From Bacteroidia bacterium (GTDB lineage: Bacteria > Bacteroidota > Bacteroidia > UKL13-3): a stretch of DNA of 64,000 nt. The stretch covers positions 5,206 to 69,205 of the forward strand of contig JBIMKP010000007.1 of the NCBI GenBank assembly GCA_051861545.1. Reading direction: 5' to 3'. The first letter of the stretch is position 1. Every line of letters begins with the position of its first letter. This document shows, one piece after another, positions 12 through 47,733 of this stretch. A program made the position numbers and the translations under genes. The notes under the pieces were generated by a model. The model searched no databases and had not been told where the DNA came from. It saw nothing but the letters and a program-made list of their open reading frames with translations.

Positions 12-1199
12 ATGGGTATTGGTTACGAAACAGGTAATTTCAAGAATTTTCAAATTGGTATAAGTGGATATTTTATTTATAACTTAGGTTCATCAGATTT
101 AGCTGCAAAAGACCCTTATGCAAAACAAAGCAGTAGGTATGAAATTGGTTTGTTTGATATCGAAAATCCGAATAACCATTCAGATTTAGATAGGTTAGAA
201 GATTTATACCTCAAGTATAATTTCAAAAAATCAAACCTTAAATTTGGTAAACAGCACATTAAAACACCATTTATCAATCCTCAAGATGGTAGAATGAGAC
301 CAACTTTGGTTGATGGTTTGATTTTAAGTTTGAATGATATAAAAAACACGAATATTGAAGCAGGTTATTTGTTCTCAGTTTCACCAAGAAGTACTGTTAA
401 ATGGTATGATATTGGGGAGTCTATTGGTGTTTATCCAAGTGGTTTAAGTCCAGATGGAACCAAATCTTCCTATAAAGGCAAAATAAGAAGTGATTATATT
501 TTGTACCTCGGACTTTCTCGTAAAATTGCTAAAACGCATAAAATTGAAGTTTGGGATATGTTGGTTGAAAATGTATTTCACAATACCCTTTTGCAATATA
601 CTGGTGATATTAAAACAGGTAAGAAACAAAAGCTTTTACTTGGTGCACAGTTTATCGCTAATCAAGCAGTAAATAATGGAGGAAATGAAAACCAATCCGA
701 AACTTATATGAATAAAGATGCTAAGTCTTATACATTTGGTTCAAGAATTGGATATTCTAAGGAAAATTTAGGGCAGCTAACTTTTAATTACAATAGAATT
801 ACCTCACATGGCCGTTATTTAATGCCAAGAGAATGGGGTAGAGATCCGTTTTTTACCTTTATGCCTCGTGAAAGAAATGAAGGTTTTGGAGACGTACATG
901 CGTTTAATATGGTTGCAAGTAAATACTTTGAGAAAAAACGTATGAAGGCCGATTTGAGTTATGGTCGTTTTTATTTACCGAGTGTAAGTAATGTAAATTT
1001 AAATAAGTATGGAATGCCATCTTATTGGCAATTAAATGCAGATGTAAAATACATTGCTTCGGGTTTTTTAAAAGGATTTGAGTTTGAATTATTATATGTT
1101 TACAAGGGACAATTAAATTCTGATTTTCACCAGTCAGATTACGTAATGAATAAGGTTGATATGAGTTTAATTAACTTATTGGTAAATTACCATTTTTAA
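12..1199 (+). CDS. Outer-membrane beta-barrel protein, probably 5'-truncated at the window edge
   Basis: The reading frame is open back to nt 3 (..AFGMGIGYETGN), so the gene likely starts upstream. Alternating amphipathic beta-strand pattern with aromatic-rich strands. C-terminus ends ...LVNYHF, with the terminal Phe typical of OM beta-barrels. Confidence 0.5.
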   Translation: MGIGYETGNFKNFQIGISGYFIYNLGSSDLAAKDPYAKQSSRYEIGLFDIENPNNHSDLDRLEDLYLKYNFKKSNLKFGKQHIKTPFINPQDGRMRPTLVDGLILSLNDIKNTNIEAGYLFSVSPRSTVKWYDIGESIGVYPSGLSPDGTKSSYKGKIRSDYILYLGLSRKIAKTHKIEVWDMLVENVFHNTLLQYTGDIKTGKKQKLLLGAQFIANQAVNNGGNENQSETYMNKDAKSYTFGSRIGYSKENLGQLTFNYNRITSHGRYLMPREWGRDPFFTFMPRERNEGFGDVHAFNMVASKYFEKKRMKADLSYGRFYLPSVSNVNLNKYGMPSYWQLNADVKYIASGFLKGFEFELLYVYKGQLNSDFHQSDYVMNKVDMSLINLLVNYHF

Positions 1200-1202
1200 A
1201 AA

Positions 1203-2915
1203 TTGATTATGAAGGATACAAATACAAAACAAAGAAGAGATTTTTTAAAGAATTTAGGTTTATTGGGAATGGGTGCTACTGTTATTCCAAGTTTAAGTGC
1301 CGATGCCAGTTCAATTGATTCTAATGAGTTTTTAAACACAGATGCAGTTGAAATGGATAAGGAAAAAACAATCCAAATTCTTCAAACTACAGATGTGCAT
1401 TGTCAGGTGTATCCTCATGATGAATTGTTCTGGGAAAATGAGCAACTTACATTTAGAAAAGCTGGTGGATACGCACATTTGGCCACCTATTTCAAAAATG
1501 CTAAGAAGAAAAATCCAAATACCTTTATTCTTGATACTGGTGACATGTTTCAGGGAAGTGAATTGGCTGTAAAAACTACGGGTAAGGCTTTGGTACCAAT
1601 TTTAAATTCTCTTGGATACCAATTGTACTTGCCAGGAAACTGGGAGGTTGTGTATTATAAAAAGGCTATGCAGACTTTAATGGGTGCTTTAAATGCTCCG
1701 AAGGTTTGTGCAAATATGTACCACGATTTAGGTGAGGGTAAAAAAGGCGAATTGATTTTTAATCCATATTATATTTGGAATGTTGAAGGAGTTAAAATTG
1801 GATTTTTAGGTTATACTGATCCTTTAGTTCCTTTACGCCAATCGCCCAATTATAGCAAGGGAATCATTTATACCAAGCCTGAAGAAAATATCAAACATTA
1901 TGTTGATGTATTAAAAAATGATGAGCAATGTGCTTTTATCATTATTCTTTCTCATTTGGGTTTATCACAACAAATTGCTTTGGCTAATGATGTTGTTTGT
2001 GAAGGTGTAGATTACATTTTTGGTGGCGATACACATGAAAGAGTTAGAAAACCCATTCAATGTAAATATGCTAAAGTAGTTGAGCCTGGTGCTTTTGGTT
2101 CGTTTGTTGGTAAACTTGAATTAAAAATAAAAGGAGGAAAGGTAATTGCTGATTCTTATGTTTTAGATGAAGTTGAACCCAATAAGTTAAAAGCCGATGC
2201 AGCTGTAACAAAATTGATTCAAGCAAATGAAGAGCCATTTTCTAAAGATATCAATGAAATTGCAGGTTATAGCACTTTGCCATTATACAGAAATTTCGTA
2301 GTTGAAAACACCATTGATACCATGATTTTAAATGCGCTTCATTGGCAATTACCAGAAATTGATATTGTACTTTCAAATGGTTTTAGATTTTGTCCACCAA
2401 GAAACACTCCCGACAAAACTGGAAATATTCCAATAACCAATGGTTTTATATTTGATATGTTGCCTGTTGATAGCACAGTAAGAACAGGTAAAGTAACAGG
2501 TAAACAAATTTTCGATTGGTTAGAAAAGGAATTAAACAATGTGTTTGCTAAAGATGCTTCGAAACGTTTTGGTGGTTGGGTGATTAAATTTAAAGGAATG
2601 AGCATTGAATTTAAAGCTTTTGAGGCTATGGGAAGCAGGGTTCAAAAGGTTTTGGTGAAAGGAGTTCCATTAGATGTAAATGCTACTTATACAGTTTGTG
2701 CTTGTGAAAGAGATGGCGATCCTGCTGATATGCTATGTAGAATAAAAAATGTTCAGGATGCGAAAAACACCTCACATACTTTGCATCAGGTAATGAAAGA
2801 TTATTTGAAAAACAATTCACCAGTTACTCCAAGTTTACCTTTAAGCGCGAAGATTCTAGATGCACCTCAAACATTGTTAAGTCAGGTTTATGGAGTGGAT
2901 TATCAGTTTAAATAG
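1203..2915 (+). CDS. Tat-secreted metallophosphoesterase / 5'-nucleotidase family protein (SoxB-like architecture)
   Basis: Twin-arginine signal RRDFLKNLGLLGMGA. Calcineurin-like motifs DVHCQ, GDMFQG, GNWE. C-terminal 5'-nucleotidase-type domain; about 570 aa. Confidence 0.65.
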   Translation: MIMKDTNTKQRRDFLKNLGLLGMGATVIPSLSADASSIDSNEFLNTDAVEMDKEKTIQILQTTDVHCQVYPHDELFWENEQLTFRKAGGYAHLATYFKNAKKKNPNTFILDTGDMFQGSELAVKTTGKALVPILNSLGYQLYLPGNWEVVYYKKAMQTLMGALNAPKVCANMYHDLGEGKKGELIFNPYYIWNVEGVKIGFLGYTDPLVPLRQSPNYSKGIIYTKPEENIKHYVDVLKNDEQCAFIIILSHLGLSQQIALANDVVCEGVDYIFGGDTHERVRKPIQCKYAKVVEPGAFGSFVGKLELKIKGGKVIADSYVLDEVEPNKLKADAAVTKLIQANEEPFSKDINEIAGYSTLPLYRNFVVENTIDTMILNALHWQLPEIDIVLSNGFRFCPPRNTPDKTGNIPITNGFIFDMLPVDSTVRTGKVTGKQIFDWLEKELNNVFAKDASKRFGGWVIKFKGMSIEFKAFEAMGSRVQKVLVKGVPLDVNATYTVCACERDGDPADMLCRIKNVQDAKNTSHTLHQVMKDYLKNNSPVTPSLPLSAKILDAPQTLLSQVYGVDYQFK

Positions 2916-3612: not shown

Positions 3613-4371
3613 ATGAAATCGTTTCTGGTTCTGGTCTTTTATATGTTAATGGGTTTTCAAATTTTGGCACAGGTTCAAAAACAAACCAAGGAAGATACAC
3701 ACGTTTGGATTGCTTTTATTTCGAGTATTCAGTTAAATGAAAAATGGAATTTATTAGCAGATGTTCATTATAGAAGAACGGAGTTTTTAAACAGACCAGG
3801 CTTTTTTGTTGCAAGAGTAGCTCCTGAATATAAGTTTAAATCGGGATTTAAATTAGCTGCTGGTTATGCCAATTTACTTTCTGCTCCAACAATTTCTACT
3901 TTAAATACTTGGGCAGATGAACACCGGATTTTTCAACAACTGATTTATCCGTCTTCAATTGGGAAAATTTCTTTACTACATCGAATTAGGAACGAACAAA
4001 GATGGAGGCAGATAATGGATACCAAAAACGATACATGGACAGGTGAATATGCTTTTACAAACCGGGTTCGTTATTTATTAAGTTTGAATATTCCAATCAA
4101 TCATTCCGAAAAACATCCTGCATTTATTCTTGCTGATGAAATTTTAGTTCATTTCGGAAAAAGTATCACCTATAATACTTTCGATCAGAACAGAATATTT
4201 CTGGGTTACCGACAAAATATCAGCAAAAAATTGGCATTTGATGTTGGTTATATGCGGATTTTTCAACAAAAACAAACAGGCTTTCAATACGATTTAAACC
4301 ATACCATCCGATTGTTTTTTTACGGCAATTTTAGCGGAGAACACCATAAAAATCATCAACATTCACTTTAG
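3613..4371 (+). CDS. Hypothetical secreted protein
   Basis: N-terminal signal peptide (MKSFLVLVFYMLMGFQILAQ). Aromatic-rich beta-strand-like repeats. No catalytic motif recognised. Confidence 0.4.
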   Translation: MKSFLVLVFYMLMGFQILAQVQKQTKEDTHVWIAFISSIQLNEKWNLLADVHYRRTEFLNRPGFFVARVAPEYKFKSGFKLAAGYANLLSAPTISTLNTWADEHRIFQQLIYPSSIGKISLLHRIRNEQRWRQIMDTKNDTWTGEYAFTNRVRYLLSLNIPINHSEKHPAFILADEILVHFGKSITYNTFDQNRIFLGYRQNISKKLAFDVGYMRIFQQKQTGFQYDLNHTIRLFFYGNFSGEHHKNHQHSL

Positions 4372-4408
4372 TTTTCTTGGTTTGAATAAGCTTTGTATTT
4401 GCTTAAAT

Positions 4409-4796
4409 GGATAGCTATATTTTTACTGTAAGTGATTTTTAGTAAATAGGGTTCATATTTTGATTGAAATTTTCAAAAAGTAGTTTGGTTTTAAATTTCT
4501 CTATTTTACAAAATTTAAGACCCCGATAGGTGGTCTCATGTTTATAGAAAAATGCTTTAGATAGACTTCTCCTCCCATTTCTCTTCAAGGCGGACCTTCG
4601 GTCCGCCTTGAAGAGAAATGGGAGGGACTTTGCATTAAATTTCTTTTTCTATAATCATGTCATCCCTTCTGGATTTTTAAAAACTTGTTCTAGTTCTCGT
4701 TTATCTTTTAGGGTTGATTTTAATGAGTATAATCAAAATAAAATTATTTAAGATTCGCTAAAGGTTTTTTCTAGTATAAAGCCGCTTAATCGTATT
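4409..4796. mobile_element. MITE-like intergenic repeat, copy 1 (~390 bp, non-coding)
   Basis: Shares conserved blocks with the copies at 9545, 33202 and 47346: ttttcaaaaa.tagtttgg, aagaccccgataggtggtctcatgtttatagaaaaatgct, ataatcatgtcatccctt. Contains a perfect 55-bp palindrome at 4571-4625. Confidence 0.7.
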
Positions 4797-4837
4797 GCTA
4801 AATTTGATTTTCATCTTCTTTTTAGCATCTTGCTAAC

Positions 4838-9001: not shown

Positions 9002-9025
9002 GGAAATTAACATAAATCTATTTAA

Positions 9026-9054
9026 AAGCTGCTCAAGAATGTGCAGCTTTTTTT
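9026..9054. terminator. Bidirectional rho-independent terminator after ccmE
   Basis: Hairpin aagctgc-tcaagaatgt-gcagctt followed by an 8-nt T-run. The complementary strand also reads stem plus TTTT, serving the convergent small gene. Confidence 0.6.
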
Positions 9055-9076
9055 GTGGCTTTGATTTTTATTTCTT

Positions 9077-9328
9077 TCAAAAAGTTAACTTACTAGAACT
9101 GCTGGAAAAGGTTCTACTTTCATTAATTACATTGATGATTTCCTCAGCTGATTCATTTGAATCCCATGCTCCATATGACTCAAAAAATGAAGACTTTTTT
9201 TCTGTAATGTCAGTCTTTACTGATTGTGTAAGCTTTGAGATAAGGTCAAGTTTATTACTTGGACTAAGATTATCTAACATTTTTAAATAACCATCAATTA
9301 AGGTCGTATTTATGTCTATAGCTTTCAT
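9077..9328 (-). CDS. Hypothetical small acidic protein
   Basis: 83-aa ORF convergent with ccmE and ending at the bidirectional terminator. Protein-like composition (..FFESYGAWDSNESAEEIINVINESR..). The overlapping + strand ORF 9039-9290 is low-complexity and unlikely. Confidence 0.4.
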   Translation of the reverse strand: MKAIDINTTLIDGYLKMLDNLSPSNKLDLISKLTQSVKTDITEKKSSFFESYGAWDSNESAEEIINVINESRTFSSSSSKLTF

Positions 9329-9544
9329 TTAGTTCAAGTTAATTAACAAACAAATATAATAAAAAGAGTCAAGCTGTTTAGTTATCAATGCTTTGAATAA
9401 ATCAAGCATTAACTAAGAAAATCTCATTTTGGTATTTAAAAAATGAGATTAATATCCCTTTTGAATAAATAAATTCAACTCCGAGGAAATTTCAAATAAT
9501 TCAAAAGTTTAAGTTTTTTAATTGAACCAATATTTTAAGAATTC

Positions 9545-9946
9545 GAATACCGCAAATTTACCAGTTGAAAAAATATTAGGATAGCTGATCCTAGTATTAT
9601 TCTTGTCTTAAACTAATTCAAAAGTTGCATGTTATTTTGCTTCAATATTGAACTTTGAACAAACAAAAATTATATTTAAACTGCGTAAAAACCCCGTTAG
9701 GTGGTTTAACATTGGTAGTATTAAAATCGTTTGAACGTCCTACGCAACGCCCTCTCTTCCGCGGACCGAAGGTCCGCGGAAGAGAGGGCGTTGCGGGTGT
9801 GTTTATTCATTTATGTTCTACCAGTGTTATGTACCTGACGGCACAAAAGATTTTAGTAAAATGAAAGTTCAATTTTAAAAAGAAAGAATTAAAAATTCCC
9901 TTAATCCCAAGAAGAAAACTTTTTTTAGGAAAAGAAGCGGATAGTC
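9545..9946. mobile_element. MITE-like intergenic repeat, copy 2 (diverged)
   Basis: Left end gaataccgcaaatttaccag and right end gaagcggatagtc match the TIR region of the other copies. Conserved ccccg.taggtggt block. Perfect 53-bp palindrome at 9743-9795. Confidence 0.6.
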
Positions 9947-10066
9947 GTATTTAATAATAAAGAAAATGTATTCACTCATTTTCACTTCAAACTGGCTTCT
10001 CTCTAATTTCATTATTCACTCAGTCATACTTTCAAATTTTACACATAGAAAAGTACTGCTTATTCA

Positions 10067-32949: not shown

Positions 32950-33201
32950 GATTTTAAAATTTTATAAATTGATGTTTACAAACTACGTACCAATCGCACC
33001 AAAATTAAAATGATGGCAAAAAGGAACATATAAATGCTGATTCTATTGATTCCATGCATCATTTTTAAGTTAAATGATGACGGACTGTCAGGATTTGGCT
33101 TTTTCCAGAATTGTAAATACGACAGAAATTTCTCCCACATAGCTGATAATTTTAAAAACAAATTTAAGATTAAACAATCAATACTCATATTGTTTTTTTG
33201 C

Positions 33202-33598
33202 GAGTATCCGCATTTACCAGCAGTAATTTTTTATAAATCCGGTGCATGTTTTGAGAAATATTTTCAAAAAATAGTTTGGAATAAAATTGCTCTATATAGT
33301 GAAGTTTAAGACCCCGATAGGTGGTCTCATGTTTATAGAAAAATGCTCGAAATGGATTCCCCCAAATCTCTACAAACGCGGACCAAAGGTCCGCGTTTGT
33401 AGAGATTTGGGGTGGTTTTTCTTTACTTTTTTTCTTCTATAATCATGTCATCCCTTCAGGATTTTAAGAATTTCAAGAAAGAACTTGTTCCTGATTTAAA
33501 TTCATGTTTGGGGTTTATTTTGATTTTATTGAGTAAGCATCTTTATTAAAGCTTTGAAGATTCGTAAAACAGATTCTTAGATAAAGAAGCGGATACTC
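33202..33598. mobile_element. MITE-like intergenic repeat, copy 3 (best preserved; 10-bp TIR gagtatccgc / gcggatactc)
   Basis: The TIRs are read directly. The element is flanked by ~20-bp direct repeats atactcatattgttttt(t)tgcg at 33181-33202 and 33593-33613. The internal perfect palindrome is at 33366-33418. Confidence 0.7.
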
Positions 33599-33637
33599 AT
33601 ATTGTTTTTTGCGAAAATTTAAATCTGCTTAAAAATA

Positions 33638-43839: not shown

Positions 43840-43982
43840 TATCAAATTTTAAATGAATAATACTGGGTAAGTTTCTTATCCGGTATTTTTCGTTTATGTG
43901 AGTATACAAAGTTTGAATTAGCAAATTTCTAATTTAGATTTATCTACTTGATAAATCTAATAGATGAAATGCTAAAAATTTT

Positions 43983-44071
43983 GGGGGATTAGCTCATTTG
44001 CTATGATGATTCTATCAGCATTTTGCTAGAGCGTGCTGACGATACTGTCAGCAAGGTGACCGGTTCAAGTG
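43983..44071 (+). pseudogene. Degenerate tRNA-Ala-derived copy A
   Basis: GGGGGATTAGCTCATTTG is identical to the tRNA 5' end. A 25-nt insertion (ctatgatgattctatcagcattttg) sits in the D-loop. The anticodon arm is replaced by hairpin TGCTGAC-GATACT-GTCAGCA. The T-arm is truncated (ggtgaccggttcaagtg). Confidence 0.55.
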
Positions 44072-44083
44072 AAAAAAATAAAA

Positions 44084-44157
44084 GGGGGATTAGCTCATTT
44101 GGCTAGAGCGCTTGCCTGGCAGGCAAGAGGTGACCGGTTCGAATCCGGTATTCTCCA
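44084..44157 (+). tRNA. tRNA-Ala (anticodon GGC)
   Basis: Folded by hand. Acceptor GGGGGAT/ATTCTCC with the G3:U70 Ala identity pair. D-arm GCTC-ATTTGGCTA-GAGC. Anticodon arm CTTGC-CTGGCAG-GCAAG. Variable loop AGGTG. T-arm ACCGG-TTCGAAT-CCGGT. Discriminator A. No encoded CCA. Confidence 0.85.
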
Positions 44158-44168
44158 CTGAATAATAA

Positions 44169-44193
44169 GAAGACGGCTTAGGTCGTCTTTTTT
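44169..44193 (+). terminator. Rho-independent terminator after tRNA-Ala
   Basis: aagacg-gcttaggt-cgtctt followed by a 7-nt T-run. Confidence 0.6.
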
Positions 44194-44198
44194 TGTTT

Positions 44199-44275
44199 TT
44201 GGGATTAGCTCATTTGGATAGAGCGTGCTGACAGTATCGTCAGCAAGGTGACCGGTTTGAATCCGGTATTCTCCA
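44199..44275 (+). pseudogene. Degenerate tRNA-Ala-derived copy C
   Basis: The acceptor 5' strand has mutated to TTGGGAT. D-arm and T-arm are intact. The anticodon arm is replaced by hairpin TGCTGAC-AGTATC-GTCAGCA, the exact reverse complement of the hairpin in copy A. Confidence 0.55.
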
Positions 44276-44314
44276 CTGAATTAAACACGATTATGTTCGT
44301 CTTTTTTGTTTTTA

Positions 44315-44354
44315 GGGATTAGCTTAATTGTGCTGAGGATTCTATCAGCATTTG
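44315..44354 (+). pseudogene. tRNA-derived 5' fragment D
   Basis: gggattagcttaattg followed by hairpin tgctga-ggattcta-tcagca. Rest of the tRNA is absent. Confidence 0.45.
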
Positions 44355-44534
44355 AAAACCACACAGAATTAAATGGTTATATTAAAAATTATCTTTCTTC
44401 AAATTCAAGTAAACAAGTGAGTGTTGAGGTTTTAACTCAGTCGGATGCCGAACAACTATTAGCAAGCATAAAAGAAAAGATTGAGTTACATGAACAAGCA
44501 AAATAACAAAAGCCCGAAATTAATCGGGCTTTTG

Positions 44535-44696
44535 TTATTTTAAGGCTTTTGCTATTAAGCTAATGGCTAGTATTGCAGCTGAGGTTAGCACAATAGCGTT
44601 AACTATCTCAGCTGTTTTGCCATATACTGTAACACAAGTTTGCTTGTTGCACAGTGTAACTTTTTCGCCTTTGGGGTAATTGTATAAATTACTCAT
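44535..44696 (-). CDS. Possible small membrane protein (53 aa)
   Basis: Not in the ORF track. MSNLYNYPKGEKVTLCNKQTCVTVYGKTAEIVNAIVLTSAAILAISLIAKALK. Ends at the palindromic terminator aaaagcccgaaattaatcgggctttt (44508-44533). Confidence 0.25.
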   Translation of the reverse strand: MSNLYNYPKGEKVTLCNKQTCVTVYGKTAEIVNAIVLTSAAILAISLIAKALK

Positions 44697-44762
44697 AAAG
44701 ATAAAAAATTAAATTGTAACAATTCCCTCACTCTTACCCGGAGGGTTCAAGTTTCTGTTGTA

Positions 44763-44930
44763 TTACTCTTTTGTAATACCTTTAAATGGAGTGCCGTCAG
44801 ATTTGCCATCCATAAACTTTCCGTCTGGACCTCTTTTTGTCCAGATTTTAGTTAACGGATTTAAAACTTGAGTACGATCTTTAACAGCACCTTTACGGTG
44901 GCCATCTCCAATTGGCGCATTTTTAGCCAT
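44763..44930 (-). CDS. Possible small basic protein (55 aa)
   Basis: Not in the ORF track. MAKNAPIGDGHRKGAVKDRTQVLNPLTKIWTKRGPDGKFMDGKSDGTPFKGITKE. ATG start. No homology recognised. Confidence 0.3.
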   Translation of the reverse strand: MAKNAPIGDGHRKGAVKDRTQVLNPLTKIWTKRGPDGKFMDGKSDGTPFKGITKE

Positions 44931-45126
44931 AATGTTCTAAAATTTAACTTTACAGGCTGTTTTAAACTGAGCCACCTGTCACCAAGCCAAGAAAAAGACA
45001 TTTTGAATACTACCAGCAATTGTTACATTTGTGTTACCAAACAAAATATGTTAGCATGAGCTTGCAGAATTCGGGGGAGTCTTTTTCGGCTTCCCCTTTT
45101 TATTACACAAATTTAAATCTTTGTTT

Positions 45127-45160
45127 TGGACAAATCAGAAATATTTTTTATATTTGTCCA
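45127..45160. promoter_or_regulatory. 9-bp inverted repeat tggacaaat-N16-atttgtcca overlapping a TAnnTTTG -7 box (tatatttg, 45149-45156) upstream of the XRE-ImmA gene
   Basis: Perfect inverted repeat read in the sequence. An operator overlapping the promoter suggests autorepression by the HTH domain. Confidence 0.4.
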
Positions 45161-45201
45161 TAAGTTTTTCCCATTCCTAAGGCAATCAACTCTTTCACTA
45201 T

Positions 45202-46263
45202 ATGCAATACTTCAGCAGTCGATTAAAAAGCGCGAGGGTAATGAATGGTTTTTCATTACAAGATTTATCTGATAAATTGAAAGGAGAAATTTCTAAACAA
45301 GATTTGAATAGATTAGAATTAGGTTTAAATCAGCCTAATAGTGAAATTTTAGCTAAGCTTTCTTCTGCTTTGAATATTCCTTCTGATTATTTTTTTAGAA
45401 ATGAAACAATCAATCTTCCTTCCGTTGAATTTAGAAAACTAACCAAACTTCCTAAAAAAGACCAAGAAGCTGTTAAAGGAAAAACCATTGATTTTTTAGA
45501 ACGATACGCAGAGCTTGAGAATTTAATGGGTGTATCTCAATCACCAGTATTTAATCATAAAGAGTATGTGATCAATTTTAATAGTCCTGAAGAAATTGAA
45601 AAAGCGGCCAATGTTTTCAGATCTAAATTAAATCTTGGTATAGATCCCATTTATAATCTTATTGAATTGTTAGAAGAAAATGGAGTTAGGGTGTTTTCTA
45701 CAATTGCTTCTCCATCATTTTCTGGAATGTCCACTTGTGTTGCAAATTCACTATTAGTGGTTGTTTTTAATAATAATGAAGAAATACCTTTAGTAAGAAA
45801 ACGATTTACCATTTTGCATGAAATCGCACATTTATTTTTGGATTTGGAGAAATTCGAAGATAAAGTGAAAGAGCGTATTTGTGATTCTTTTGCAGGGGCA
45901 GTGTTGCTTCCCCAAAAGAAGTTATTAGAATATTTTGGTCCCAAAAGAAATAATTTTCTCACTAAAGAATTAATGGCTATAAAATCATATTTCGGAATTT
46001 CAATACCAGCAATTATTTATCGAGCGAATTCAAACCAAATAGTGAGTGACAATTATCTTAAATACTTTATGATTCGGTATAATAAAGAATATAAGGATTT
46101 GGAAAAAAACGGCTATTTAGGGAAGGAAGAGTCTCAAAGGTTTACTCAATTGCTGCTTAGGGCAGTTGCTGAGGAGGTAGTAACTTCTTCAAAAGCTGCA
46201 TCTTTGAATAACCAAAAACTATGGGAGTTTAGAAAGCAATTCATTGATAATATCTCTTATTAA
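45202..46263 (+). CDS. XRE-family HTH fused to ImmA/IrrE-type (M78) zinc metallopeptidase
   Basis: N-terminal HTH (..LKSARVMNGFSLQDLSDKL..). C-terminal HExxH motif ILHEIAHLFLD with downstream conserved E/D. 353 aa. Confidence 0.7.
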   Translation: MQYFSSRLKSARVMNGFSLQDLSDKLKGEISKQDLNRLELGLNQPNSEILAKLSSALNIPSDYFFRNETINLPSVEFRKLTKLPKKDQEAVKGKTIDFLERYAELENLMGVSQSPVFNHKEYVINFNSPEEIEKAANVFRSKLNLGIDPIYNLIELLEENGVRVFSTIASPSFSGMSTCVANSLLVVVFNNNEEIPLVRKRFTILHEIAHLFLDLEKFEDKVKERICDSFAGAVLLPQKKLLEYFGPKRNNFLTKELMAIKSYFGISIPAIIYRANSNQIVSDNYLKYFMIRYNKEYKDLEKNGYLGKEESQRFTQLLLRAVAEEVVTSSKAASLNNQKLWEFRKQFIDNISY

Positions 46264-46298
46264 GTCCTTTTTAATTTCGCCATCGTAATTCTACTCCA

Positions 46299-46799
46299 AT
46301 GCAAAAAATTGCCATTACTGATGCAAATATTTTTATTGATCTAATCGAAACTGAAATTTTCGAATATTTGTTTCAATTCGGAATAAAAGTACATACTACT
46401 TATGAAGTTTTTGACCAATTAAGCCCAAATCAACAAGAAATACTTAAGTCATTTGAGTTAAATGGAGAACTTGTAATTTACTGTCTTTCATATTATGAAT
46501 TAGTTCAATTAGAGAATTTGCAATTTCCAGCAGGTTTAGAGCTTGCTGATAGATCGGTCTATTTTTATGCAAATAATATTCAAGGTTTGGTTTTAAGTGG
46601 AGATAGAAAACTAAAAAAATATTGTGAAAGTAAGCAACTTCGAGTAAATGGGATAATTTGGGTATTTGACCAGATTCATGAATTTGGTCTTATTCAAAAG
46701 GCCGACTTAGTTTTCAAACTGAAATTATTAATGAAAATAAATAAAAGATTACCTGTCGAAGAATGCAATAAAAGGATTCATGCATGGCTTCAGGGCTAA
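46299..46799 (+). CDS. PIN-like nuclease domain protein (DUF4411-like), partner of the XRE-ImmA gene
   Basis: N-terminal IAITDANIFIDL carries the first PIN Asp. Central ..ELAD.. and SGDRKL acidic motifs. 166 aa. Sits 35 nt downstream on the same strand. Confidence 0.5.
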   Translation: MQKIAITDANIFIDLIETEIFEYLFQFGIKVHTTYEVFDQLSPNQQEILKSFELNGELVIYCLSYYELVQLENLQFPAGLELADRSVYFYANNIQGLVLSGDRKLKKYCESKQLRVNGIIWVFDQIHEFGLIQKADLVFKLKLLMKINKRLPVEECNKRIHAWLQG

Positions 46800-46897
46800 A
46801 TAATTTGCGTTTGCTATTTAAATTAAAAAATTGTTATTACTAAAATGAATTCAATTCTAATTAAAATTCTATTGATAAGGAATTTATTATAAGTTTT

Positions 46898-47263
46898 TCA
46901 CCCCTTCCTCAATATCTTCTCCATCTTTTTTCCTTTTGCCAATTCATCAACCAATTTGTCTAAATAACGAACTTTTTGGGTTAATGGATTAGTAATTTCT
47001 TCGACTTTATAACCGCAAATGTTTCCAGTGATTAAATGTGCATTGGGATTGATTATAGCTTTCTCGAAAAACTGCTCAAAATTGATTTTTTCTTCAATGA
47101 ATTGCTCTATTTGATTTTCATTAAATCCACATAACCATTCAATTACTTCATGTAATTCGGCAATTGTTCTTCCTTTTTTCTCCACTTTCGTAACATAATG
47201 AGGGTAAACAGAGCTAAAACTCATTTTTGTAATTTTTTCGTCGTGGTGGCTCGTACTTTTCAT
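46898..47263 (-). CDS. DUF2200-family protein
   Basis: [34 protein letters not shown] matches the conserved DUF2200 N-terminal block. 121 aa. Confidence 0.45.
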
Positions 47264-47345
47264 ATTGGTATTTTATTGAAGAAATTCAAAAATAGAGCTT
47301 CGATTTTCTTAAAATATAAACTTCTTTAAAATATAAATCAATTTT

Positions 47346-47733
47346 CCGCATACTTACCAAGTATAATTTTTTATAAATCCCGTGTTTATTTTGAAAAGTA
47401 TTTTCAAAAAGCAGCTTGATGTTAAATTGCTCTTTTTTATGAAATTTATGACCCCGATAGGTGGTCTCATGTTTATAGAAAAATGCTAAAAATGAATTTC
47501 CCAACACTCTACAAACGCGGACCAAAGGTCCGCGTTTGTAGAGTGTTGGGCTGGTTTTCTTTACTTTTTATTTTCTATAATCATGTCATCCCTTCAGGAT
47601 TTTTAAGCGTTTCTAAAAAAAACATGTTTCTGATTTTAATTTATGTTTTAATGAATATTTTGATTTTTTAGAGTCATTATCGGGTTTAAGGCCTTTGAAA
47701 GTTCTTTTAGGTAAATAAGTGGATATTCGTTAG
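47346..47733. mobile_element. MITE-like intergenic repeat, copy 4
   Basis: Closest relative of copy 3, with long near-identical blocks. Flanked by imperfect direct repeats atataaatcaatttt (47331-47345) and atattaaatcaaatt (47734-47748). Palindrome at 47504-47554. Confidence 0.7.

Follow-up and report, generated by a model that had tools for sequence, protein, structure and literature searches.

The window analysed here, a 64,000-nucleotide stretch of contig JBIMKP010000007.1 (positions 5,206 to 69,205, forward strand) from the Bacteroidia bacterium assembly GCA_051861545.1, has a GC content of ~32% and carries four copies of a MITE (miniature inverted-repeat transposable element), each containing a perfect palindrome. 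In all four, arms of 24-26 bp flank a 3-nt loop and meet it in an invariant tip, GCGGACC-NNN-GGTCCGC. The tip pattern, GCGGACCNNNGGTCCGC, occurs four times in the window against 0.08 occurrences expected from shuffles, and each hairpin folds as single-stranded DNA (ssDNA) at -31 to -36 kcal/mol (z ~ -13 to -14). A preliminary description of this DNA had reported four palindromes free of mismatches and of G-T pairs, with loops TTC, GAA, AAA and AAA in copies 1 to 4; sequences and loops are as it gave them, and its positions for copies 3 and 4 (33366-33418 and 47504-47554) proved to be 6 and 4 bases too high. From comparison with related copies, the arms are probably kept exactly complementary by template switching within the hairpin, in which one arm is copied at the DNA level from its partner.

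The palindrome-bearing element is a non-autonomous, non-coding DNA transposon that has not been described before. We assign it to the MITEs, as the preliminary description had done in looser terms, because it has terminal inverted repeats (TIRs), target-site duplications, an appropriate size, many dispersed copies, and empty sites in close strains. The window copies measure 387-404 bp, below the ~600-bp limit for MITEs, and the only open reading frame (ORF) overlapping any of them is a mechanical one of 91 amino acids (aa) at 33034-33309, with no Pfam hit. The TIRs are ~12 bp long, with ACGAATATCCGC at the left end and GCGGATATTCGT at the right end of most copies, and form inverted pairs ~380-400 bp apart. 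Outside them lie AT-rich direct repeats of 9-12 bp, the target-site duplications, which read ATTTGCTTAA at copy 1, ATATTGTTTTTT at copy 3, and TACATTTTT and ATAGAATTA at two related loci, L023 and L024 (loci in related sequence are given by number throughout), and which are single in empty alleles. A known RNA family was considered and rejected, as Rfam 15 at gathering thresholds returned only a tRNA-Ala in the window and a permissive Rfam scan (cmscan) of copy 1 returned only generic microRNA (miRNA) hairpin models far under threshold. No similar DNA was found in collections of annotated plasmids, phages and viral contigs, and a literature search with the motif strings gave only chance human matches.

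The palindromes form the tips of a conserved five-part foldback module within the MITE. From the left end, ACGAATATCCGC, ~115 nt lead to a 5' small hairpin (GACCCCGATAGGTGGTC), which is followed by one strand of an outer stem (CATGTTTATAGAA) and an internal loop. Next come the central hairpin of 24-27 bp, the second outer-stem strand (TTCTATAATCATG), a 3' small hairpin (ATCCCTTCAGGAT) and ~130 nt up to the right end, GCGGATATTCGT. The 5' small hairpin is near-invariant in 28 copies, its closing pair covarying from G-C to A-T, and the outer stem (helix 2) covaries in copy 2 and in L029. In the central hairpin, the tip and a C-rich base are conserved, and the middle ~14 bp drift about as fast as those parts of the element that are free of constraint.

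We counted pairing in 35 distinct copies from related metagenome genomes, taking together the main family and a second, shorter family described below. Of 844 stem pairs, 833 are Watson-Crick; 25 of the 35 palindromes are perfect, and the other ten contain one or two non-Watson-Crick pairs. Among the 11 exceptional pairs, nine are transition-type and two transversion-type, and a tally of the former in element orientation gives four to six G.T and three C.A, a nearly even split by which wobble pairs are not favoured. Within the variable stem columns (63-79) of a 28-copy alignment, 147 cells are changed on both sides and one on one side only. All four Watson-Crick pair types occur at most of these columns and G-U is absent from them, whereas both G-U pairs and mismatches are found in the element's outer stem and in a minor helix. 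Covariation scores 0.407, compared with 0.10 after shuffling and 0.06-0.08 when the partners are slid. Non-Watson-Crick pairs thus make up ~1% of stem pairs, against 10-40% divergence between copies elsewhere in the element. The earlier statement that every arm pair is Watson-Crick stands for the four window copies and for the variable positions and fails for the ten imperfect copies elsewhere; decaying palindromes with uncorrelated arm changes, named in advance as evidence against active maintenance, are seen only marginally, at a level far below that of independent decay.

Several of the exceptions lie in the tip itself. The G.T pairs there (L011, L018 and L024) arise from C-to-T changes in the 3' half, from GGTCCGC to GGTCCGT, GGTCTGC and GGTTTGC, and L026 has a G.A pair instead. 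One possibility is cytosine methylation followed by deamination at GGTCC/GGACC (a GGWCC site).

Changes in the arms are mirrored down to closely related copies. Nearest-neighbour comparisons yielded 81 mirrored transversions and 52 mirrored transitions, counts that reuse copies and are phylogenetically non-independent. The arms of window copies 3 and 4 differ by two substitutions (A/C and T/A) and one C:G pair at the base, each of them mirrored, as had been noted earlier. Between L002 and L025, at a scaffold distance of 3%, a run of adjacent mirrored changes converts TTCT to TGGC, and L005 and L010 differ by a mirrored 1-bp indel. The true orthologs L003 and L021, which share both flanks at ~90% identity, differ by one mirrored A/C-T/G transversion and by no unmirrored change in the 22-bp shared stem. 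For the window copies, every related strain has either an empty site or a contig that breaks inside the element; L003/L021 is the only clean ortholog pair.

The loop occurs as a given triplet or its reverse complement, in near-equal numbers and with hardly any intermediates (TTT 11, AAA 10, TTC 3, GAA 3, ATT 1, TTG 1). Inverting a perfect palindrome alters its loop alone, and a change from AAA to TTT cannot arise by point mutation. On a tree of the scaffold we count at least eight flips, which does not differ from random placement (mean 9.5, P = 0.21). The proposal that TTC and GAA are inversions of one hairpin is therefore borne out by the near-equal counts and repeated flips, and extends to AAA and TTT.

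The arm sequences are variable and patterned. All are variants of a single C-rich pattern, CCCCCAAA-N(6-8)-CAACGCGGACC, and their identity tracks that of the scaffold (r = 0.75). We thus rejected the idea that the arms evolve faster than the element: they outpace only the highly conserved core of the module. The suggestion that arms might look random or hypermutable fared no better, given the shared pattern, a divergence that follows the less conserved parts of the element, and a seeming arm replacement at L029 that is explained otherwise (see below). Guide- or target-like arms were likewise rejected, with no match at up to two mismatches, other than further copies of the element, across 446 kb of sequence from relatives.

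Table. Positions of the elements, their parts and neighbouring features; unless a locus is named, coordinates are those of the window.
Feature	Location	Position	Strand	Details
MITE copy 1	window	4407..4793	+	387 bp; diverged terminal repeats ATGGATAGCTAT ... GCCGCTTAATCGT
Copy 1 target-site duplication	window	left 4397..4406; right 4794-4803		left ATTTGCTTAA; right ATTGCTAAAT; from empty-site comparison
Palindrome of copy 1	window	4571..4625		26+3+26, loop TTC
5' small hairpin	window	4519..4535; also 9690-9706, 33310-33326, 47450-47466	+	GACCCCGATAGGTGGTC; bulged T, GNUA-type loop
Outer stem, copy 1	window	4537..4549 paired with 4647-4659	+	CATGTTTATAGAA with TTCTATAATCATG
3' small hairpin	window	4662..4674; copy 3: 33450-33462	+	ATCCCTTCTGGAT
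MITE copy 2	window	9544..9947	+	404 bp, divergent subfamily; ends CGAATACCGC ... GCGGATAGTCG
Copy 2 flanks	window			degenerate duplication TATTTTAAGAATT / TATTTAATAAT
Palindrome of copy 2	window	9743..9795		25+3+25, loop GAA
MITE copy 3	window	33200..33598	+	399 bp; ends GCGAGTATCCGC ... GCGGATACTC
Copy 3 direct repeat	window	33187-33198 and 33599-33610		ATATTGTTTTTT
Palindrome of copy 3	window	33360..33412		25+3+25, loop AAA; GGGTGGTTTTT next, terminator-like on + strand
Outer stem, copy 3	window	33328-33340 and 33435-33447		
MITE copy 4	window	47341..47730	+	~390 bp, left end approximate; right end GTGGATATTCGT
Palindrome of copy 4	window	47500..47550		24+3+24, loop AAA
Cassette remnant, ccmE-ccmF	window	9002-9543		~500 nt
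83-aa ORF in remnant	window	9077-9328	-	
Islet beside copy 4	window	~43840-46900		strain-specific
tRNA-Ala(GGC)	window	44084-44158		in islet
HTH_3/Peptidase_M78 gene	window	45202-46263		in islet
DUF3368 gene	window	46299-46799		in islet
Second-family copies	L015	232-338		
	L019	370-486		
	L026	208-312		
	L059	5729-5859		
	L060	3170-3273		
Module elsewhere	L030 (= L038)	3661-3830		
	L032	~1830-2070		
	L036	135-330		
	L039	50-230		
Three-gene cassette unit	L025	761-4306		right terminal repeat at 4292
Tandem repeats	L022	~690-860		~36-nt units

The element is abundant and has recently been mobile in this low-GC freshwater Bacteroidia lineage. Each of the four window copies is missing at the corresponding site in strains with 98-99% identical proteins, and the empty sites of copies 1, 2 and 3, on contigs of other samples with identical or 98-99% identical proteins, carry a single copy of the target. 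The site of copy 1 is empty (GTATTTGCTTAATTTGATT) in L055-57 and L060-62 and filled in the window; the insertion is also present, with the same idiosyncratic right duplication, in L058, a relative at 87% identity, and is therefore an old polymorphism. For copy 2, the ccmE-ccmF spacer measures 1080 nt in the window; L043, L050 and L055, from which precisely the copy 2 segment is missing, have 657 nt there. The copy 3 site is empty in L065, L072 and L073, with a single ACTCATATTGTTTTTTG and a spacer of 315 nt compared with 725 nt in the window, and for copy 4 the spacer between the DUF2200 gene and the next gene measures 569 nt in the window, against 91-133 nt (~440 nt shorter) in L065-L070. Beyond the window, a search with a flank-plus-half-tip pattern collected 23 further copies from four freshwater Bacteroidia metagenome-assembled genomes (MAGs), many at contig ends, which we aligned with the four window regions. 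The genome GCA_027487625.1 (H1_MAG_00027) holds at least 13 copies at other sites and is conspecific with the window by the 98% identity of one protein (DUF885).

Among 30 copies examined, orientation relative to the downstream gene is unbiased (10 same, 11 opposite), and 17 of 24 upstream genes are co-oriented with the element (17:7). The four window copies all lie upstream of + strand genes; a cis-regulatory leader was nevertheless rejected, as these genes are unrelated and downstream orientation shows no bias. No partner protein was found next to the module, its neighbours being unrelated both in the window and at distant loci. A single terminator-like structure was predicted, on the + strand of copy 3, with a stem far longer than usual, and copies also occur between divergent genes. 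We conjecture that the hairpin with its T-rich tail on the + strand, which resembles a long intrinsic terminator, has a putative role of this kind, and the element may thereby insert terminator-like hairpins between genes.

Short-read assemblies end inside the element (L001, L027, L041, L052-54, L058, L064 and L029, the last being JACCDR010380022.1). In L029, the left flank of copy 2 is joined to the right flank of another copy, at the dxr locus. This contig had the appearance of copy 2 with replaced arms, which would have meant hypermutation at one locus; we rejected this and regard L029 as a chimera or recombinant of two copies, because its right flank belongs to a different locus. The element is accordingly a source of contig breaks and chimeric contigs in MAGs, and is usable as a strain-level insertion marker.

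Other variation surrounds the copies. The ~500 nt preceding copy 2 are the remnant of a cassette encoding a PIN toxin and an 81-aa protein; the complete cassette is found in L051, L058 and L061, and L042 and L045-L049 lack it. With the cassette and the MITE both varying, the ccmE-ccmF spacer has at least four population states (151, 657 and 1080 nt, and the full cassette). Beside copy 4 lies a strain-specific islet, containing a tRNA gene and two protein genes, that is missing from related strains, in which L27 and DUF2200 are ~400-750 nt apart. In L025, a left MITE half is followed by a 3.1-kb cassette of three genes (570, 91 and 322 aa, all on the opposite strand) and then by the right terminal repeat; this TIR-bounded unit of ~3.5 kb has no obvious transposase and represents either cargo caught between MITE ends or a MITE split by insertion. 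In L022, tandem repeats (CCCCGGACTAAAGTCCGGGGCAATTGAATGCATGGT and variants) directly follow the 3' end of a truncated copy.

The second MITE family shares the terminal repeats of the main family, to whose copies it often lies adjacent, and is shorter, with almost complete symmetry. Its palindromes have their own variable sequence, are perfect or contain one non-Watson-Crick pair, and carry the tip GCGAACC or GCGGACC with loops TTC or GAA. The architecture of the module also recurs in contigs of other Bacteroidota metagenomes with 41-54% GC, beside unrelated genes, where its parts comprise the 5' hairpin xACCCCGNTAGGTGGTx', CATGTTTATAG, an outer stem, a long central hairpin and a 3' small hairpin. 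In L030 the palindrome, perfect and of 26 bp, is a different one, within which the 5' hairpin motif recurs. The distribution of the module is far wider than that of this MITE.

Our preferred explanation for the maintained complementarity, which we hold to be probable, is intra-hairpin template switching. During replication or repair, a nascent strand would switch template intramolecularly at the hairpin (quasipalindrome correction), such that a new mutation in one arm would soon be erased or mirrored, and a switch running through the loop would invert the 3-nt spacer, interchanging AAA with TTT and TTC with GAA. We favour DNA-level copying over stepwise compensatory selection because G-U pairs are absent where the stem varies, mirrored changes are mostly transversions, an ortholog has changed in place, and loops flip. 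The expected footprints are present, in that arms are homogenised, including transversions and multi-base changes, and the spacer is inverted. Template switching between the arms of an inverted repeat is reported to homogenise them and to invert the spacer (PMC8604942). Elsewhere it has been reported to create and maintain perfect stems via multibase compensatory changes and loop inversions, and 61% of instantaneous compensatory changes in ribosomal RNA (rRNA) were found to be of the transition type (PMC8794818). Quasipalindrome template-switch mutation is also documented at the E. coli thyA hotspot and in related work (PMC7202029). The preliminary description had listed template switching among several ways of copying arm from arm, and it best explains the covariation, the mirrored changes and the loop flips together. 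A close variant, mismatch repair templated by a cruciform, would leave the loops unflipped on its own.

Several points weigh against this explanation. The evidence is all comparative and drawn from metagenome assemblies, from which we infer the switch event; the clean ortholog pair is one, and the nearest-neighbour counts suffer from the non-independence given above. No autonomous insertion sequence (IS) with the same ends and a transposase was found in ~600 kb of related sequence. Correction must take some time, as 10 of 35 copies retain uncorrected mismatches. Watson-Crick pairs alone would likewise be expected if a DNA hairpin or cruciform were selected for maximal stability. Finally, pure templating leaves the conservation of the tip and the stem base unexplained, so that some selection must act on the hairpin too; the conserved GC-rich tip suggests a hairpin nucleation clamp or a putative binding site.

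Could selection alone suffice? Here the hairpin would serve as functional RNA (a terminator, 3' stabiliser or RNase III substrate) or as ssDNA or a cruciform in transposition, and point mutations would be followed by compensatory selection. We consider this unlikely as the whole account. Conservation of the tip, stem base, 5' hairpin and outer stem implies constraint; the hairpin with its T-tract fits the terminator pattern on the + strand, and the predominantly co-oriented upstream genes and the recurrence of the module in other Bacteroidota point the same way. REPIN hairpins have been accounted for in this manner (PMC3116915). Selection for RNA, however, should tolerate G-U pairs, which are missing at the variable positions (one one-sided change against 147 two-sided), and no wobble preference is seen; the version based on a DNA hairpin is harder to exclude. 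Both versions meet difficulty with the excess of mirrored transversions over transitions, with adjacent multi-base mirrored changes between near-identical copies, and with AAA/TTT and TTC/GAA flips, each of which requires three changes at once without any selective reason. Selection should also be weak on each of many dispersed, strain-polymorphic MITE copies.

Alternatively, the palindrome could be regenerated at transposition, with a fold-back or hairpin intermediate carrying one arm and the other being resynthesised, so that copies are born perfect and then decay. The four window copies are all strain-specific insertions and all perfect, the minority of copies elsewhere with one or two mismatches is as expected of ageing copies, and a protein might recognise the palindromic tip. 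Perfect stems nonetheless persist in the orthologs L003 and L021 at ~10-18% scaffold divergence, with a mirrored change acquired after insertion, while copies 1 and 2 combine degenerate target duplications with perfect palindromes. No hairpin-processing enzyme was found among the genes near copies. TIR-bounded, target-duplicating transposition by DDE enzymes is not known to resynthesise internal sequence, and overall we regard regeneration as improbable. Somewhat more speculatively, the tip could be the site of a dedicated enzyme that binds or cleaves hairpins and, after nicking, causes one arm to be resynthesised on the other by fold-back. We give this little credence; if true, the hairpin would be an active self-templating module, and not a passive by-product of replication, possibly coupled to mobility or to perfect double-stranded RNA (dsRNA) of copy-specific sequence.

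It is very unlikely that the arms encode a programmable specificity, being guide-, target- or spacer-like, for instance as processed dsRNA guides or captured foreign DNA. Such a role would suit arms that differ between copies around a conserved scaffold core, and a perfect duplex of 24-27 bp has the size of a small-RNA precursor, the sole weak cmscan matches (far below thresholds) being miRNA hairpins. However, the arms are variants of one pattern (CCCCCAAA-N-CAACGCGGACC) and not independent, they diverge in step with the scaffold, the 446-kb search returned only other copies, and no associated protein was found among the neighbours. It is hardly credible that the perfect palindromes or the flipped loops are artefacts of assembly or of the library. 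Breaks in short-read assemblies do occur at the element, but NCBI, JGI, ENA and Logan assemblies, independent and from different projects, agree on its architecture, and palindromes of 51-55 bp are shorter than reads and final assembly k-mers, so that unique flanks should anchor the loop orientation.

The element resembles several known bacterial MITEs. Correia/NEMIS of Neisseria, the enterobacterial ERIC/IRU and the pneumococcal RUP are small, non-coding, multi-copy elements with TIRs and target-site duplication that fold into long hairpins; they are intergenic and strain-polymorphic, and are potential RNA hairpins or terminators if transcribed. The present element shares their small size, lack of coding capacity, copy number, TIRs and target duplications, intergenic location and strain polymorphism. 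In those families, imperfect terminal repeats build the hairpin, which ordinary mutation erodes, whereas here a separate internal hairpin of 24-27 bp is strictly Watson-Crick and copy-variable, with a conserved GC tip and a flipping loop. The element has no sequence similarity to any record searched in Rfam or in the plasmid, phage and viral sets. A parallel for the loop is found in chloroplast non-coding DNA, in which minute inversions occur at hairpin loops, a short spacer between perfect inverted repeats flipping recurrently and homoplastically. Those inversions affect single-copy loci of an organelle with no mobile element, unlike the mobile family described here. Integron attC sites, which function as folded ssDNA, likewise combine a conserved structure with a variable sequence. 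They conserve their outer R/L boxes and depend on extrahelical bases and on imperfect stems, in contrast to the conserved tip and perfect stems here, and the unrelated neighbours of the window copies include no integrase or cassette array, which sets the element apart from attC sites.

REPINs are doublets of REP sequences, forming hairpins in which compensatory changes are common, and are mobilised by RAYT tyrosine transposases (PMC3116915). As in REPINs, inverted conserved units here surround a less conserved hairpin-forming spacer with compensatory changes (PMC3116915), and the second, shorter family is an almost fully symmetrical doublet. The element differs in having TIRs and target duplications of 9-12 bp, and its stems are longer and essentially mismatch-free. 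Given these TIRs and duplications, and the absence of a conserved GTAG or CGTC tag at the foot of the hairpin in the aligned copies, it falls outside the REPINs.

In its mode of change, the hairpin comes closest to quasipalindromes altered by template switching, which are reported to show imperfect arms made perfect, multi-base mirrored changes in one step, and loop inversion (PMC7202029, PMC8604942, PMC8794818). The cases treated in those studies are single chromosomal hotspots, yeast and ape genomes, and rRNA and miRNA genes; here a whole bacterial mobile-element family, highly active in uncultured freshwater Bacteroidia, would show the process, judged by comparison. The origin of compensatory changes is a long-standing question in the evolution of RNA and DNA structure, and the family amounts to a natural replicated experiment, with dozens of independent hairpin copies whose arms drift yet stay complementary and whose loops flip. 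It would provide unusually clean comparative evidence from bacteria that long perfect stems can be maintained by template switching instead of by compensatory selection acting stepwise via wobble pairs. The mechanism of mutation has precedent; the novelty lies in a bacterial MITE family that displays, over dozens of copies, a drifting, loop-flipping and strictly Watson-Crick palindrome with a conserved tip.

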